From Escherichia phage HX01: a DNA stretch of 64,000 bases. The translations under genes were made by a program, and so were the position numbers. The notes beneath the pieces are model-generated. The model worked only from the letters and a program-made list of their open reading frames with translations. It had not been told where the DNA came from and ran no database searches. Position 1 is the stretch's first letter; each line of letters begins with the position of its first letter. The stretch lies in the sequence record NC_018855.1. One strand, written 5' to 3'. This document shows, in pieces, positions 2,209-7,589 of the stretch.

Positions 2209-2436
2209 ATGGCTAAAGTTAGTATTGATGTCGTTGATTATGAATACACCGAAGAAGTTATTCGCAACCGTCACCCTGAAGTTCGTATCGATTCAGTCCA
2301 AGATTCCAAGTTCTGGACAACTGAGCTTAATCTAAGTGGTCCTTATGAAGCTGTTAAGAAGTTCATGGTTGAAGAATACTGTGAAGGCATGCACCCAGAA
2401 GACGCCGAGTTTTATGTCAATTTGATTAAAAAATAA
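2209..2436 (+). CDS. hypothetical protein
   Basis: 75-aa ORF, SD AGAGGAAAA. Confidence 0.55.
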   Translation: MAKVSIDVVDYEYTEEVIRNRHPEVRIDSVQDSKFWTTELNLSGPYEAVKKFMVEEYCEGMHPEDAEFYVNLIKK

Positions 2437-2465
2437 TTTACAAACTCTTGAGAGCAGAGTATAAT
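2437..2465 (+). promoter_or_regulatory. early promoter (TTTACA -35, perfect TATAAT -10)
   Basis: TTTACA 2437-2442, 17-nt spacer, TATAAT 2460-2465; -10 flanked by inverted repeat GAGAGC/GCTCTC. Confidence 0.55.
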
Positions 2466-2506
2466 GCTCTCGTTGGATAACAAACCACCAATTGAAAGGT
2501 AATAAT

Positions 2507-3100
2507 ATGAACACACTGAAGAAACTTGTTGAATTCATCCGCACTAAACTGGGTACTGCTATGGCTAAAAATCTGACTGTAGAAGAACAGTATAACGCAG
2601 CTGCAGATAAGTTGATTACCCAAATCAAAGAACTAAAAACGGCTTCTGTTAAATCTATTAATGAAGAAAAACGTATTCGCGAACTTGTTAATGAAAAGAA
2701 CAAGCAAGCCGCTTCTAAGGAACGTGAAATTCGTAAGCTCCTGGCTGAAGGACAAGATGTTACCATGCATGCTAAGCTTGGTCTTCTGTATCGTCGAACG
2801 GCTGAACAACTTAATACAAAAGCTGACGGGTATGCCGCTATGCGAATTGAAATTGCTCGTAAGGTGGTTGAACTTGACGATGCTCGTCAGAACCTGGCAA
2901 TCAAACTCGAATACATTCGTGAAACTCGAGCAGCCAATGCCCTTGGTATCTCTACGGCTGATGATGTAATTGAAATCGCTGCACTAACTAAGGTTGATAT
3001 TGAAGACACTCTGACTCGTGTTGAAACGTTCAATGGCACTCCAACCGGTGTCGAAACCACTTCTGCTGATGTACAAGAATATATTAACTCTTTGAAATAA
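2507..3100 (+). CDS. hypothetical protein
   Basis: ORF track 2492..3100; first ATG at 2507. Confidence 0.6.
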
Positions 3101-3108
3101 AATAATAC

Positions 3109-3130
3109 GGAGGACTCCGGTCCTCCTTTT
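3109..3130 (+). terminator. rho-independent terminator
   Basis: GGAGGAC-TCCG-GTCCTCC then TTTT. Confidence 0.65.
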
Positions 3131-3149
3131 GGATAATAAAGGAGTTAAC

Positions 3150-3746
3150 ATGCGAAACCAAAATAATGATATTGACTCAATGTTCGAAGAGTTCCGAAAT
3201 AAGGTAAATCCACCTACGTCTTTAGTTGATTCATTACGATATGTTGCAACTGGACGTAAATGGTATTGGTCGTCTTCTTATGAGACAACTGAATATGCAA
3301 ATAACCGAAAATCTTTATTAGCCCCAGGTATTATGATTCATGATATCGGAGCTATTGCTAAACTAGTTGCAGACCATGATATTAGATTCACTGATTTCGT
3401 TGCTCCTACGTGGTCTGTTTGTTGTTTAAACACTGAATGGGACTATATCAGTGAACGTTCAGATGATTACATAGGCTTTAGAGACAAGCTTTTAAGGTCT
3501 AACATGTTTTATATTGATACAGAAGTTCTGGTCAATAATAAAAAATACTACTTCACTTTAATCGTCGATTCTGAAACTATGTATGAAGGCAAGCCTTTGC
3601 TTAAAAGAGTTGATGCTTTAAGTGCTATTGATGCGCTTTATGAAACCATGGTTGTTAGTCCTAATTTCACTAACAATTTAATCCTTGAGCAATTTATTAT
3701 GGAATGTAGAGAATATGTCAAAGCCAACCCTATACATGCCAAGTAA
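3150..3746 (+). CDS. hypothetical protein containing the EQFIMECR motif
   Basis: ORF track 3129..3746; ATG 3150 after SD AAAGGAG. Confidence 0.6.
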   Translation: MRNQNNDIDSMFEEFRNKVNPPTSLVDSLRYVATGRKWYWSSSYETTEYANNRKSLLAPGIMIHDIGAIAKLVADHDIRFTDFVAPTWSVCCLNTEWDYISERSDDYIGFRDKLLRSNMFYIDTEVLVNNKKYYFTLIVDSETMYEGKPLLKRVDALSAIDALYETMVVSPNFTNNLILEQFIMECREYVKANPIHAK

Positions 3747-4110
3747 GCCCTGGGCGTATGAATACAAGCGTAAATTAATCCCAAATGAAGTACTATTTGG
3801 CCCTATTTTAGCTTTAGCATTTTTAATCTTTATGATTATAGGAGCTGTTTTAGATTCCAATAAAGTTATATCGTCTGATGCAGCGTTTTCATTAATGTTC
3901 GTCGCACCACTTATTGTACCGTTTTTATTAATGCCTATTAATTGGGCAGGATATTGGCACCAAGGCCGTCATCACAGAGCCCGATTAAGAGAATGGAAAG
4001 TTCAGTGCGCAAAAGCCCAAGCTCAGTATGATGAAGCTGTTAAAAAGTATGAATATGAAGAAGCTATGGAATTCGTTAAGGAAATAAGATGCAAAAACCT
4101 CAACTCTTAA
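3715..4110 (+). CDS. small membrane protein, C-terminal EFVKEIRCKN tail
   Basis: ORF track 3685..4110; first ATG 3715; hydrophobic segments. Confidence 0.5.
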   Translation: MSKPTLYMPSKPWAYEYKRKLIPNEVLFGPILALAFLIFMIIGAVLDSNKVISSDAAFSLMFVAPLIVPFLLMPINWAGYWHQGRHHRARLREWKVQCAKAQAQYDEAVKKYEYEEAMEFVKEIRCKNLNS

Positions 4111-4451
4111 CCGTATGGCCTTCTCTTGGTGAGAACATTCTAATTTTTATTATGAGTATTGGCATGGGATTTGCCTTTGGATTAGTTGGATTTCTTATTG
4201 ACGGCGTTGTGTTAGGATTTATAGGGAACACTGGTGGATTCACAGACCAATGGCAGGACTTACGGTATACCCAAGCCTTTGCATCCATCGCATCATTTTG
4301 TACTGTAGTCTATTTTTACTACGATTTTATAAACCATAACAAGAAAAATAAAAAGGTTTACGCTTCTCAAATGATTAGTTATAATGAACTCCTAGCTAGA
4401 CGTGAAAATGAAACAATAGAAAACTTTATTAAGGAATGTAGAAATGAGTAA
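4089..4451 (+). CDS. small membrane protein, C-terminal ENFIKECRNE tail
   Basis: 120 aa, SD AAGGA, hydrophobic N-terminal half. Confidence 0.6.
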   Translation: MQKPQLLTVWPSLGENILIFIMSIGMGFAFGLVGFLIDGVVLGFIGNTGGFTDQWQDLRYTQAFASIASFCTVVYFYYDFINHNKKNKKVYASQMISYNELLARRENETIENFIKECRNE

Positions 4452-4749
4452 GATTATTGAAATTAAAGTACCAGAGTTTAATGATGCCAAATCCGCTTCA
4501 GATGCAATTTATAAACTTCTGAATCAAGCTGAACGTATCGAAGAAGAAGCAACAAAGATCGCAGACCAATATGCCGTATCATTTTCTGTAGGTGATTATG
4601 GTAGCGGTCGTACTTATTATCCTAAGGGTGAAATCGTATCCCAGTGGATGAAAGATGAAATTGAAAATAATGGTGGCGATGTTAAGCGTGAAGGTAATGG
4701 TTACGTTATTACTGAAGGTGCTTGGGTTTCGTCTTCTGCGTTGTGCTAA
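4444..4749 (+). CDS. hypothetical protein, paralog family ending W-V-SSSALC
   Basis: 101 aa; first of three tandem paralogs. Confidence 0.6.
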   Translation: MSKIIEIKVPEFNDAKSASDAIYKLLNQAERIEEEATKIADQYAVSFSVGDYGSGRTYYPKGEIVSQWMKDEIENNGGDVKREGNGYVITEGAWVSSSALC

Positions 4750-4758
4750 GGAATCATT

Positions 4759-5031
4759 ATGTCTAAAGAACAAACCGAACTGGCTGAAGCTGTAGCAAAA
4801 ATCTATGCAGCTATTGAGGCTGCCAAAGAAATTGCTGATAAACAAAACACAACATTCGACTTGTATCCAGCTTATGGTATGGGTGGAACATATCATTCAC
4901 CCGGACAGCTTAAAGCCGATCTTGAACGTTGTACAAAAAACGGCTATGCTGAATGGGCTGACGTTTACCAATACGACTACAACCTGAGCCTCGAAACTGG
5001 TGGTTGGATCGCATCTTCTCACACTTGCTAA
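4759..5031 (+). CDS. hypothetical protein, paralog family ending W-I-ASSHTC
   Basis: 90 aa. Confidence 0.6.
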   Translation: MSKEQTELAEAVAKIYAAIEAAKEIADKQNTTFDLYPAYGMGGTYHSPGQLKADLERCTKNGYAEWADVYQYDYNLSLETGGWIASSHTC

Positions 5032-5040
5032 GGAAACCAT

Positions 5041-5238
5041 ATGTCTCGTGAATTAGATTGTGCTGTACGTACGGCAGTAGCTGCCCTGGAAAACCTGTTC
5101 CAAATTGCAACAGAAGAACGCGAAGAAGTTACATTGTGGATTGAAGATAACGCAGGTCTGAATCTCCAGAACGCGATCTCATTATCCCACAATAGTATCA
5201 CTGTTCAAGGCTGGGTATCATCTAGTTATTCTTGCTAA
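5041..5238 (+). CDS. hypothetical protein, paralog family ending W-V-SSSYSC
   Basis: 65 aa. Confidence 0.55.
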   Translation: MSRELDCAVRTAVAALENLFQIATEEREEVTLWIEDNAGLNLQNAISLSHNSITVQGWVSSSYSC

Positions 5239-5242
5239 AACA

Positions 5243-5272
5243 GTTTACAACAAGATAGGGCTATGTTATAGT
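5243..5272 (+). promoter_or_regulatory. early promoter with inverted repeat around -10
   Basis: GTTTAC 5243-5248; GATAGGGCTA / TAGTCCTATC inverted repeat. Confidence 0.5.
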
Positions 5273-5300
5273 AGTCCTATCAAATTAAATGGAGTCCACA

Positions 5301-5540
5301 ATGATTTATTACGAAAGTATTGGAACCGAAGTGGTTGCTAAAACCATTACTCGTGAAAAGTTTGCAAAGATATTCGATATGCGTTATAAAAAATCTGAAC
5401 ACAAAGGCATCCGATTCGAAGATGCACACTGTACAATTTGCCCTTATAACGAAGACATAAATGGTACAATCGTTCCATTGGTAGAGGCTTCACACGATGA
5501 CCTCTGGGATGAATATGATATCGCATGTCGTGAAATTTAA
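5301..5540 (+). CDS. hypothetical protein
   Basis: ORF track 5289..5540; ATG 5301 after SD GGAG. Confidence 0.5.
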   Translation: MIYYESIGTEVVAKTITREKFAKIFDMRYKKSEHKGIRFEDAHCTICPYNEDINGTIVPLVEASHDDLWDEYDIACREI

Positions 5541-5568
5541 GTTAATGAATTAATCCGAGGAAAATATT

Positions 5569-6525
5569 ATGATGTTAGTTATTGGTTCTCGTGCACTTCA
5601 CTATCACGGTCTTATTGATTCTAACGCTATCAAAAATAGTGACTGGGACTTTATTGCAGACCAAGGTTCTTGGAATGCATTCAAAAATCAAATGATGGGT
5701 GTATATGTTCACCAAGATAACCCTGATGTCCAAGTTTTCAAATGCTTCCATAATGGACGCGAAACTCATTTTGAAGCATATATTGTTCCGGCAATCACTA
5801 ATGTCCGTGAATTAGTAGGTGAACTCACTCCTGAAGATTTCACGTCTTCTTATGACCTTTTAAAATACGCCAAGAAAAATTTGACTAAAGACCGTTTGAA
5901 CGGGTTTTACTGGGCAACTCCTGAGATATGTCTTGCAATTAAGATGTCTCATCGTTTCAAGAAAAATAATCCATTCTTTTTAAAGACTATGAACCATATT
6001 CAGTATCTTCGTGGTAAAGGTGTTACACTGAACGATGAACTTACTGAAATTATGCTAAAACGCCAGAAAGAAACCTTGAACTATGCTCACCCAGTTCTTG
6101 ACACTTCTAAAAGTGCGTTCTTTAAAGATGACATCTATACATATGACCATGATACTATTCATGAAGCCATTGCACTAACAGACCGTCCAGCGTATACATT
6201 TTATATGAAAGACGGTTCTGAAGTCATGACATCACGCGAGAAGTTCGAATCATTACCAGAAATGGTCAAATTGGCCGGTGTATACGAAGAATCATGTGTA
6301 CTAGCATTAGAACGTTCTCAAATTCCTAATGACTTTAAAATTAACCCTGAAGCCAGTTTTATGATGGCATTAGAAAAAGTATGTACAAGCATCACCTCCG
6401 GTTGGTTCCGTGAGTATGCCTGGGAAAACTACAGCAAAGTAGTAAGTATGTACCAAAGCTTAGGACATGATGATTACGTCAAACGTTTCAAACAAAATTT
6501 CCATATGGTAAAACCTTTCAAATAA
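5569..6525 (+). CDS. predicted nucleotidyltransferase-fold protein
   Basis: 318 aa; N-terminal IGSRALHYHGLIDSNAIKNSDWDF resembles the GS...DxD motif of Pol-beta-type NTases; unverified. Confidence 0.6.
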   Translation: MMLVIGSRALHYHGLIDSNAIKNSDWDFIADQGSWNAFKNQMMGVYVHQDNPDVQVFKCFHNGRETHFEAYIVPAITNVRELVGELTPEDFTSSYDLLKYAKKNLTKDRLNGFYWATPEICLAIKMSHRFKKNNPFFLKTMNHIQYLRGKGVTLNDELTEIMLKRQKETLNYAHPVLDTSKSAFFKDDIYTYDHDTIHEAIALTDRPAYTFYMKDGSEVMTSREKFESLPEMVKLAGVYEESCVLALERSQIPNDFKINPEASFMMALEKVCTSITSGWFREYAWENYSKVVSMYQSLGHDDYVKRFKQNFHMVKPFK

Positions 6526-6537
6526 CTTCACAAAACT

Positions 6538-6567
6538 GTTTACACAATTATAGGGCTATATTATAGT
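6538..6567 (+). promoter_or_regulatory. early promoter
   Basis: GTTTAC 6538-6543; near copy of the 5243 promoter. Confidence 0.5.
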
Positions 6568-6595
6568 AGTCCTATTAAAACATGAGGAGAATATT

Positions 6596-6901
6596 ATGAA
6601 ATTAACAGAAACCAACCGAATTGGTCTTTTAACAATATTTGCATCACCTTTTTACGCAGCCCTTTCTGTTGCAGTATTACAAAAGGCTTACGATATGGAT
6701 GGTGTTCCTGGTTTTGTATTCTTATCACCGTTTTTATTATTCGTCGGAGCATTGTTATTATATGCCACGACTAGTTTCGACCATAATGTCTGGGTCAATT
6801 ATAAATGTAAATTGTCTGAAGAAGAACACGCAGAAGCTCGTAAAAAAGCTATTGAATCTACCAATCTAGAAAATTTCATTAAAGAATGTCGAGGAAAATA
6901 A
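6596..6901 (+). CDS. small membrane protein, C-terminal ENFIKECRGK tail
   Basis: 101 aa, SD GAGGAG. Confidence 0.6.
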   Translation: MKLTETNRIGLLTIFASPFYAALSVAVLQKAYDMDGVPGFVFLSPFLLFVGALLLYATTSFDHNVWVNYKCKLSEEEHAEARKKAIESTNLENFIKECRGK

Positions 6902-6902
6902 T

Positions 6903-7589
6903 ATGAATAGTTCTAAAGTGTTTAATAGTCAAGCTCGTGCAGTAGGTGGTTTCGCTGGTAAAATTTCTAACGATAAAATCAAAAACGAACCTATGTTCTT
7001 CAACAGCTCGTTAGCCTTCGCTTTTGATAATGGTGGCCCTATTACTCGCAGCTTCATCATGAACCTACCAGATGATTGGAACACCGACCAGGTTGTATTT
7101 GATTCACGAGTCCACATGCTGATGCCTGGTTGGTATCCTGCTATTCCTGGATATCACCATGATGACGTACCACGCCCTGATATTCCAGTTGGTCAACACT
7201 TTATTACTGCAGGACAACCTGATTATGACAATCCTCGCTATTTGTCTGAACATATTCTTGGTCTTGTTAACGCTGATGTGTGTCCTACTCATTTTGCAAC
7301 AGGAACTGCAGAGTTCAGTCAGATTCCTGATGGCGAACTTATCTATCGTCAGTGGCACAAAGAAGTCCTCGAAAAAATTGAAAAAGGTGAACTAGAGAAA
7401 TGGGAAGCTCCAGATCGTACTCTTCTTCAGTTTGATTGGCAAACATGGCACACTGGTTCTCGTGCAATTAGTAACGGATGGCGTTGGTTCGGACGTGTAT
7501 CTCGTAATACAGACCGAGTTAAAAAGATTACCAATGAAATTCGTGTCAATGCTCAAGTTTATCTGGAATTCCCTATGGAAGGCTGGTAA
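6903..7589 (+). CDS. hypothetical protein
   Basis: 228-aa ORF, translationally coupled. Confidence 0.6.
   Translation: MNSSKVFNSQARAVGGFAGKISNDKIKNEPMFFNSSLAFAFDNGGPITRSFIMNLPDDWNTDQVVFDSRVHMLMPGWYPAIPGYHHDDVPRPDIPVGQHFITAGQPDYDNPRYLSEHILGLVNADVCPTHFATGTAEFSQIPDGELIYRQWHKEVLEKIEKGELEKWEAPDRTLLQFDWQTWHTGSRAISNGWRWFGRVSRNTDRVKKITNEIRVNAQVYLEFPMEGW

Follow-up and report, generated by a model that had tools for sequence, protein, structure and literature searches.

The window analysed here, a stretch of 64,000 nucleotides from Escherichia phage HX01 (NC_018855.1), belongs to an RB69-like Mosigvirus, a relative of T4, and its region 3600-6600 matches more than 130 phage genomes at 97-99% identity. 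Our subject is an array of three tandem genes in that region, which encode small acidic proteins ending in a common tail with a terminal Cys, together with a gene downstream on the same strand whose product has the predicted fold of a nucleotidyltransferase (NTase) of the DNA polymerase β (Pol-beta) type (Table 1). An earlier note, made from the letters of the sequence, had pointed to the three genes, and all of them are present with the starts and tails that it gave. Its description of the tail as opening with G-x-W held for proteins 1 and 2, whereas protein 3 has Q-G-W; the note had missed the linked enzyme at 5569-6525 and also a second motif, YG(S/M)G(R/G)TY, which is common to proteins 1 and 2 and lacking in protein 3. 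The invariant core of the tail in the three window proteins is W-Φ-[S/A]-S-S-x-x-C at the C terminus. When all six frames of the 64-kb window were searched with the regular expression W[VIL].SS, exactly three matches were found, all at the C termini of the three array proteins, and the tail pattern is therefore not due to chance; this count and the profile search that returned 191 clusters (see below) together rule out a chance or non-coding origin of the array pattern. Pairwise BLASTP similarities among the three proteins are weak yet consistent (E values of 2e-4, 6e-4, and 7e-3). The genes are packed in an operon-like manner: the ATG of gene 1 overlaps the stop codon of e.3, and gaps of 9 nt containing AAGGAA separate genes 1 and 2 as well as genes 2 and 3.

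Table 1. Genes and sequence features of the array and its linked enzyme in the HX01 window
Feature	Position	Strand	Description
e.3 membrane-protein gene	4089..4451	+	stop overlaps start of small protein 1 gene
Small acidic protein 1	4444..4749	+	101 residues, starts MSK, isoelectric point (pI) 4.6, ends ...EGAWVSSSALC*; ortholog RB69 ORF139c+138c
Second motif YGSGRTYYP, protein 1	4597..4623	+	Y52, G53, G55, and Y58 at least 90% conserved (143 members)
C-terminal tail of protein 1, W-V-S-S-S-A-L-C	4723..4746	+	
Small acidic protein 2	4759..5031	+	90 residues, starts MSK, pI 4.66, ends ...GGWIASSHTC*; ortholog RB69 ORF137c
Second motif YGMGGTYHSP, protein 2	4873..4902	+	
C-terminal tail of protein 2, W-I-A-S-S-H-T-C	5005..5028	+	
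Small acidic protein 3	5041..5238	+	65 residues, starts MSR, pI 4.29, ends ...QGWVSSSYSC*; ortholog RB69 ORF136c
C-terminal tail of protein 3, W-V-S-S-S-Y-S-C	5212..5235	+	
Sigma-70-like promoter match TTTACA-17-TATAGT with TG	5244..5272	+	consensus match only; between array and downstream genes
Intervening gene	5289..5540	+	83 residues; ortholog RB69 ORF135c, phrog_3723; outside the tail family
Linked enzyme	5569..6525	+	318 residues; ortholog RB69 ORF134c; Pfam DUF7277 + DUF7275

Proteins 1 and 2 both match phrog_899 (E values of 1.3e-22 and 1.9e-18, respectively) and the hidden Markov model (HMM) of the family (1.8e-23 and 3.5e-22), and orthologs of protein 1 extend as far as Aeromonas phage CC2. 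Protein 3, whose short body type lacks the YGxGG motif, matches phrog_4882 and, at 2.5e-4, the family HMM, and forms an ortholog cluster of its own with 18 members across 18 loci. The block from ORF139c to ORF132c (window 4444-7589, about 3.1 kb) is an insertion relative to T4 (NC_000866, 67652-68319), since e.3 directly abuts e.2 in the T4 genome, and it is located in the hyperplastic early region. A second sigma-70-like site, similar to that in Table 1, is found at 4357-4385, upstream of the small protein 1 gene. In the RB69 reference (AY303349, 4846-5152), the ortholog of protein 1 is split by a frameshift into ORF139c (71 residues) and ORF138c, and the intact 101-residue gene is present in most other Mosigvirus genomes; further truncated variants of protein 1 or protein 2 are P0006, P0018, and P0019. 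Such variants could reflect sequencing errors or dispensability in the laboratory.

A tblastn search with protein 1 retrieved 393 phage records, from Mosigvirus to phages of Aeromonas, Yersinia, and Klebsiella, while a profile search of 1.84 billion representatives found 191 clusters (50% identity, E ≤ 1e-3), nearly all of 73-143 residues and with matches extending to the last residue. Five long repetitive surface proteins (P0054, P0055, P0078, P0146, and P0162) were discarded as spurious, as they matched in multiple stretches and at profile positions 18-85 only. The terminal Cys was found in 144 of the 159 short proteins of an earlier set and in 300 of the 314 non-redundant members, with nine more carrying one extra residue after the Cys. 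In 277 of the 314 members the Trp precedes the terminal Cys by exactly seven residues, and in these members the two Ser positions show 100% and 98% conservation, the latter value being that of the Ser three residues before the Cys; a shorter ending, W-x-x-S-S-C, occurs in 14 members (about 5%). The family-wide consensus of the tail reads (G)-W-Φ-[S/A/P]-S-S-x-x-Cys-COOH. About 70% of the members have the second motif in the form (A/E)YGMGGTYYP (YGxG in 226 of 314), and the W, S, S, and C of the tail are the only invariant residues. With a median pI of 4.5, the family is acidic. Since 45 of 91 members have a single Cys and no His or Cys partners are conserved, an intramolecular metal site is unlikely, and assignment to the small intramolecular Zn or Fe-S proteins, with their three or four conserved Cys/His ligands, was rejected.

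Structure prediction was performed with AlphaFold2 for protein 1 and for the linked enzyme, each as a monomer. The model of protein 1 (predicted local distance difference test [pLDDT] of 89.7) consists of a 29-residue N-terminal helix and a small β-meander; W94 lies in the last strand and is followed by a short turn and an exposed terminal Cys of low confidence. No family was found for the small proteins in Pfam (three window proteins and all 143 aligned members), NCBIfam, or PADLOC, and sequence and profile searches of PDB returned only noise from helical or designed proteins. Likewise, nothing was found in the literature on RB69ORF136c, 137c, 139c, phrog_899, DUF7275, DUF7277, phage MenT-like NTases, or the cassette. 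The three window proteins are paralogs within an apparently phage-restricted family whose members are small (about 50-170 residues) and acidic and share one universal feature, the exposed C-terminal tail.

Tandem arrays of two, three, and up to six copies occur in unrelated contigs of 30-390 kb, and divergent copies keep the tail and lose the YGMGG motif. At least nine BLAST-distinct body types of 52-170 residues bear the tail, each once per genome; they are ancient specialised paralogs or even unrelated bodies rather than redundant copies. Tandem paralogy and a conserved terminal Cys, both noticed in HX01 by the earlier note, hold far beyond this phage (the family HMM, the 191 clusters, and the 300 of 314 members ending in Cys), and the comparison with relatives on which that note had staked its idea found the family conserved, in the 393 phage records as in the 191 clusters. 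What it had missed is that the array did not arise by recent local diversification: its paralog types are ancient, and each is conserved on its own from one phage genus to another. Some variants of the tail are worth recording. In a body type of about 144 residues a single Trp comes after the Cys (...GWISSSICW; L120, L127, L128, L147, and L158, at about 2250-3350), and other body types of 140-170 residues (...DWDSSSMYC, ...AWCSSSMxC, and ...NSDWDSSRC) have only the tail in common with the core family. A 9.5-kb viral contig (L036 6081-9089, the same contig as L154) carries six tail genes, five upstream of the NTase gene and one, the sole such case among the loci, downstream of it, with unusually divergent tails (...WEGSAC, ...WYSSHC, and ...WQPSAGTC).

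The genomic neighbours of the family were analysed in 73 viral contigs that had been collected by a degenerate DNA pattern for YGMGGTY and scanned with the family HMM. Clustering of the neighbouring genes revealed one dominant partner, the homolog of window 5569-6525. It lies downstream and on the same strand in all 34 loci with downstream DNA, these loci having been chosen via the small-protein motif; 10 further family-bearing viral loci, which break off at their downstream edge, stand outside this count. No orphan tail genes were found in the motif-selected loci where downstream DNA is present, and array and enzyme gene lie between 16 and 1372 nt apart. In the reverse test, with loci chosen by the NTase alone, 75 of 80 contained one to six tail open reading frames (ORFs), which are always on the NTase strand and upstream in all but one case, and the tail regular expression gave zero opposite-strand matches in these loci. 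Counted per lineage, the link is present in 55 of 56 NTase clusters at 90% identity and in 26 of 27 at 70%, and it is also kept in Pseudomonas phage phiPsa267 and Acinetobacter phage AM101. A pattern scan of 185,579 species genomes returned five matches, all of them in metagenome bins and all five with the link; since nothing else was matched among these genomes, the module looks confined to viruses as far as a pattern-based scan can tell. Array and enzyme genes are tightly coupled in both directions, and we consider it highly probable that the small proteins and the NTase are functionally coupled. The earlier suggestion that the terminal Cys is either a modification or a metal site is affected in both its halves: modification gains indirect support, because an NTase-fold enzyme is almost always encoded immediately downstream, while an intramolecular metal site is unlikely for the reasons given above. 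A part in host interaction or anti-defence, which the note also suggested, may still apply.

The family of the partner enzyme comprises more than 2,200 clusters at 90% identity, almost all annotated as "hypothetical", and among the 732 phage records found by tblastn with the enzyme a few are annotated as "putative nucleotidyltransferase". In an alignment of 44 sequences, the putative catalytic residues G6, S7, D25, D27, and E69 are invariant, and a helical domain of very high conservation comes after them; S7 and D25 are separated by 17 residues, as against 9-13 in the canonical pattern hG[GS]x(9-13)Dh[DE]h. The model of the enzyme (pLDDT 91.1, predicted template modelling score 0.86) starts with a strand-GS-helix-strand(DxD) arrangement as in Pol-beta NTases, and the predicted structure has a Pol-beta NTase fold with a C-terminal helical domain. 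Its structural matches (scores in brackets) were MenT1 (10.0), TglT/MenT3 (8.6), ANT(2'') (8.4), MenT4 (7.8), other small NTases (7.4-7.7), and LnuA (6.9), and these matches place the predicted fold in the MenT/AbiEii structural class of NTases. At the sequence level, the enzyme had no match to the DUF1814/AbiEii HMM (the Pfam scan at E ≤ 1 gave DUF7275 and DUF7277 only), no MenT chain appeared in sequence and profile searches of PDB, and PADLOC returned nothing. The hypermodification paper also mentions an RB69 "nucleotidyltransferase", but this is gp52:53 and the product of another gene.

Distant homologs of the enzyme keep a core of G6, S7, D25, D27, E/D69, K125, H128, K139, H194, D195, H198, E240, E241, E248, and R249. 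A further set, R165, E168, Y172, H174, P175, and K270-V-C272-T-S-I-T-S-G-W-F-R281, is invariant in the small-gene-bearing clade alone and is a candidate partner-binding surface, this sequence correlation being confounded by overall divergence. The invariant Cys residues C243 and C272 were compared with the presence of tail genes, since a match between the two would point to an intermolecular Cys-Cys or metal site. C243 and C272 are absent from distant homologs without small genes, where general divergence is likewise a confounder; AM101 has a small gene and a Tyr in place of C243, and close relatives without nearby small genes retain both Cys residues. Two distant homologs without tail genes stand in contexts of another kind: in DSS3_VP1 (L079 830-3891) the NTase gene follows RNA ligase 2 and a metallophosphoesterase, two genes further downstream, and in Gordonia phage ClubL (L076 2809-6112) it lies 1.2 kb upstream of a tRNA array, contexts that hint at an RNA- or tRNA-directed core activity. 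RlaP, an RNA-ligase-associated phage Pol-beta NTase, has been proposed to act on RNA ends (PMC7824862). It resembles the present enzyme in being a phage-encoded NTase of this fold, and the DSS3_VP1 locus adds to the likeness. However, an identity with RlaP was rejected, as the enzyme had no RlaP Pfam match at E ≤ 1 and the RNA ligase linkage was seen in one distant homolog only; moreover, no small tail-bearing partners are described for RlaP.

We propose that the array and the downstream NTase form one functional cassette. At least nine bodies share the tail, with one copy of each per genome, from which we infer that the tail is a handle by which the enzyme would modify the small proteins or be regulated by them. 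The Trp would anchor the last β-strand and so present the Ser-Ser...Cys tail as a common handle, which, serving as acceptor or pseudo-substrate, would dock in the enzyme's catalytic cleft; a single NTase could thus work on a number of different bodies, or the bodies could gate and retarget it. In the version that we prefer, the NTase would covalently nucleotidylylate (or phosphorylate) the hydroxyl of a tail Ser or the thiol of the Cys, and the cassette would constitute a protein-tagging system that acts on a group of the phage's early proteins; in a closely related alternative, the tails would regulate the NTase non-covalently in the manner of MenA and MenT. The covalent version is favoured because one enzyme with many tagged bodies accounts for the repertoire of paralogs more readily than antitoxins would. 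We give the overall explanation, a paralogous tail family joined to an NTase in a cassette with the tail as handle, about an even chance of being right, and we are equally divided as to whether the tail docks in the active site. Covalent tagging of the tail by the NTase is put forward tentatively, and a dedicated phage system, in which a MenT-like NTase nucleotidylylates (and possibly extends or converts) a portable W-x-x-S-S-x-x-Cys tag on unrelated early proteins, is possible though somewhat doubtful.

Several known enzymes and systems bear on this proposal. The fold relatives ANT(2'') and LnuA transfer nucleoside monophosphates to hydroxyl groups; they differ from the present enzyme in having small-molecule acceptors, no partner genes, and no large conserved helical domain (DUF7275). 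In the MntA-HepT (MNT-HEPN) system, the minimal NTase MntA oligo-AMPylates its partner HepT, an RNase of the HEPN type, on Tyr. There, too, a small Pol-beta NTase adjoins the gene of its covalent target and acts via a side-chain hydroxyl, which for the HX01 cassette is a hypothesis, and the cassette differs in that its partners, of which there are multiple copies, are acidic, not of the HEPN type, and end in a Ser/Cys tail. Experimental data are available for Yersinia phage phiR1-RT, in which g126, g127, and g128 are family members upstream of the NTase g125. In a toxicity screen in E. coli, which took in g126-g128 and not g125, these genes gave relative colony-forming units of 0.94, 0.69, and 1.08, respectively, with a toxicity threshold of 0.4 (PMC6893735 supplement). 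The small proteins are non-toxic alone, which weighs against stand-alone killing effectors and fits the role of a substrate or regulator. The toxic phiR1-RT genes g136 and g137 encode membrane proteins among tRNA genes and lie outside the cassette.

A number of observations speak against our proposal. No tail gene was found within the 3-4 kb flanks of the distant or partial homologs in Gordonia ClubL, DSS3_VP1, Vibrio phi-Grn1, and Streptomyces Ankus, nor in the 3-4 kb flanks of the T4-like locus L104 and the related L122, L123, L125, and L150, and such NTase homologs suggest that the enzyme has an activity independent of the small proteins. In the window itself, the unrelated 83-residue gene, which is not a universal component of the module, and the promoter-like site stand between array and enzyme, and co-regulation alone, with no physical contact between the products, could account for the conserved gene order. 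The spacing from Ser-Ser to Cys is two residues in most members and zero in about 5%, which is awkward for a single fixed chemistry, and it is not obvious why a strictly terminal Cys would be needed for O-nucleotidylylation of Ser.

Another explanation takes the small proteins as antitoxin-like regulators. The NTase would then be a toxin of the MenT/AbiEii type that modifies tRNA 3' ends, for example in host shut-off, and the acidic proteins would neutralise it or switch its specificity, either by non-covalent binding in the nucleic-acid cleft or by inducing auto-phosphorylation of Ser7, as MenA1 and MenA3 do with MenT1 and MenT3. The enzyme's best fold matches are indeed the toxins MenT1, MenT3, and MenT4, and the systems MenAT (MenA1-MenT1, MenA3-MenT3/TglT-TakA) and AbiE (AbiEi-AbiEii) share with the phage module a Pol-beta NTase with a G-S...DxD motif, its spacer being longer in the phage enzyme, and a helical C-terminal domain, as well as a small partner gene, particular to each family, that directly precedes the NTase gene in the same orientation, the arrangement seen here in 34 of 34, 75 of 80, and 5 of 5 loci. 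In MenAT and AbiE, the partner controls the active site of the NTase (PMC11375011, PMC10435456); the proteins that do so for the MenT NTases are small, diverse, and encoded upstream, and MenA1 acts through a single helix and alters the nucleotide specificity of MenT1 (PMC11375011). The MenA families are small and mutually unrelated, and the one long helix used by MenA1 has a possible parallel in the 29-residue N-terminal helix of the protein 1 model. A pI of 4.5 would suit competition with RNA, and the lack of toxicity of the small proteins alone, the invariant G6-S7 of the NTase, and the nearby tRNA gene cluster agree with the same idea. On the other hand, one antitoxin would be enough, as in MenAT and AbiE with their one partner each, yet most genomes keep two to six deeply diverged, separately conserved paralogs (one to six partners over all loci), whose sole common element is the tail and not the helix; members of the protein 3 type are too reduced to have most of the fold. 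The partners have no sequence or fold likeness to MenA1, MenA3, or AbiEi, their W-x-x-S-S-x-x-C terminus has no counterpart in those systems, and the enzyme is placed outside DUF1814 by HMM. The module, moreover, resides in lytic phages rather than cellular genomes (five metagenome-bin matches in 185,579 species genomes), and a strictly lytic phage has no evident need of an addiction module. Taken as a whole, we regard the antitoxin explanation as rather unlikely.

Independent early effectors, which would serve anti-defence or host takeover, are a less probable explanation, and we consider it distinctly unlikely. The terminal thiolate and carboxylate of the tail would serve to bind a metal or a target in the host, for example by plugging the site of a metallo-enzyme, and adjacency to the NTase would reflect a common mobile block of early genes. 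Phage proteins that are small and acidic often act as inhibitors, genes engaged in arms races typically form arrays of paralogs, chemical reasoning makes a free C-terminal Cys a good bidentate metal ligand, and some NTase homologs occur without tail genes; the location of the genes, inserted relative to T4 between e.3 and e.2 in the hyperplastic early region, would also suit such a role. However, mobility in common is alone unlikely to yield a near-perfect, orientation-keeping linkage across very different phage types with genomes from 30 kb to 390 kb, with no orphan tail genes where downstream DNA is present, and with one Cys in half of the members the metal site would need to be intermolecular. 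A maturation like that of ribosomally synthesized and post-translationally modified peptides (RiPPs) was also considered, in which a tail Ser would be nucleotidylylated and eliminated to dehydroalanine and the terminal Cys would add to it, forming a C-terminal lanthionine-type S-x-x-C ring. Tandem precursors beside one modifying enzyme are a classic RiPP layout, S-x-x-C is the canonical spacing of lanthionine and aminovinyl-cysteine (AviCys) rings, and C-terminal nucleotidylation is known from MccA/MccB. The array resembles these systems in its short tandem genes and its C-terminal Ser and Cys, the Ser at the right distance is 98% conserved, and the NTase might in principle supply the leaving group. 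Nevertheless, we hold this scheme to be very improbable and rejected the RiPP precursor class (lanthipeptide/AviCys), as the proteins are predicted to be folded (alpha+beta, pLDDT about 90) rather than leader-plus-core peptides, and the conserved would-be core and variable would-be leader reverse the RiPP pattern. In addition, about 5% of the members have S-S-C without a spacer, the NTase, of the Pol-beta type and not LanB-, LanM-, or E1-like, is the only recurrent neighbour, with no LanB, LanC, LanM, LanD, or radical-SAM genes among the recurrent ones, and maturation, export, and protease genes are lacking from the module. Ubiquitin-like sulfur carriers (ThiS, MoaD) were rejected as well, since there was no β-grasp match, the proteins end in Cys and not Gly-Gly, and the partner is a Pol-beta and not an E1-like enzyme.

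The surroundings of the cassette offered some additional observations. Two small membrane proteins flank it, e.3 and the product of ORF 6596-6901 (ortholog RB69 ORF133c), and both end ...(I/L)ENFIKECRxx (window 4422-4451 and 6872-6901); since the DNA differs at synonymous sites, ENFIKECR is conserved at the protein level. C termini of the form [NDE]-F-I-x-x-C-R-x(1-3) were found in 16 of the 80 NTase-selected loci, all on the plus strand and all in T4-like contigs of the set. The 228-residue ORF at 6903-7589 (ortholog RB69 ORF132c, phrog_1843) had no Pfam match and accompanies the cassette only in T4-like loci, so it is not a universal component. A homolog of the membrane protein e.4 (window 3685-4110; L002 1616-2011) is labelled "sulfurtransferase" in phage vB_Eco_F27, which is probably an annotation artefact, as Pfam gave the label no support (the best match, with an E value of 0.056, was to an unrelated family). 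A single tRNA gene, tRNA-Arg(UCU) at 73-149, is present in the window; it stands upstream of the cassette by about 4.3 kb, on the margin of a T4-like tRNA cluster, and the tRNA genes of phiR1-RT are likewise 3-6 kb upstream of its cassette. Finally, a perfect GC-rich hairpin, GGAGGACTCCGGTCCTCC, followed by T's, is located at 3109-3126 between ORFs 2492-3100 and 3129-3746 and scores as terminator-like on both strands.

Three anonymous ORFs have thus become a defined module in hundreds of sequenced phages, with hosts among Escherichia, Klebsiella, Enterobacter, Yersinia, Serratia, Aeromonas, Acinetobacter, and Pseudomonas, and in uncultured jumbo phages; many of these phages serve in therapy and as model systems. 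An NTase accompanied by a small partner is an arrangement already known; the present module differs in that it is phage-borne and has multiple partners, that these partners are without relatives, and that a tail defines them, and there is a realistic chance that the chemistry of the tail is itself new. The tail offers a simple signature for annotating thousands of "hypothetical" phage proteins without a Pfam family, and, being invariant and eight residues long, it is an experimental handle for mass spectrometry and point mutants. Enzymes of the MenT/AbiEii class are known as bacterial toxins and abortive-infection effectors, and a phage-borne relative that has tail-bearing partners of its own suggests viral nucleotidylylation of tRNA or protein, a counter to AbiE-type defence, or a new protein modification. 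If the tagging proposal is true, it would represent a new logic of post-translational modification in viruses, one enzyme with many tagged effectors, built on an enzyme fold recruited from, or ancestral to, tRNA-targeting toxins.

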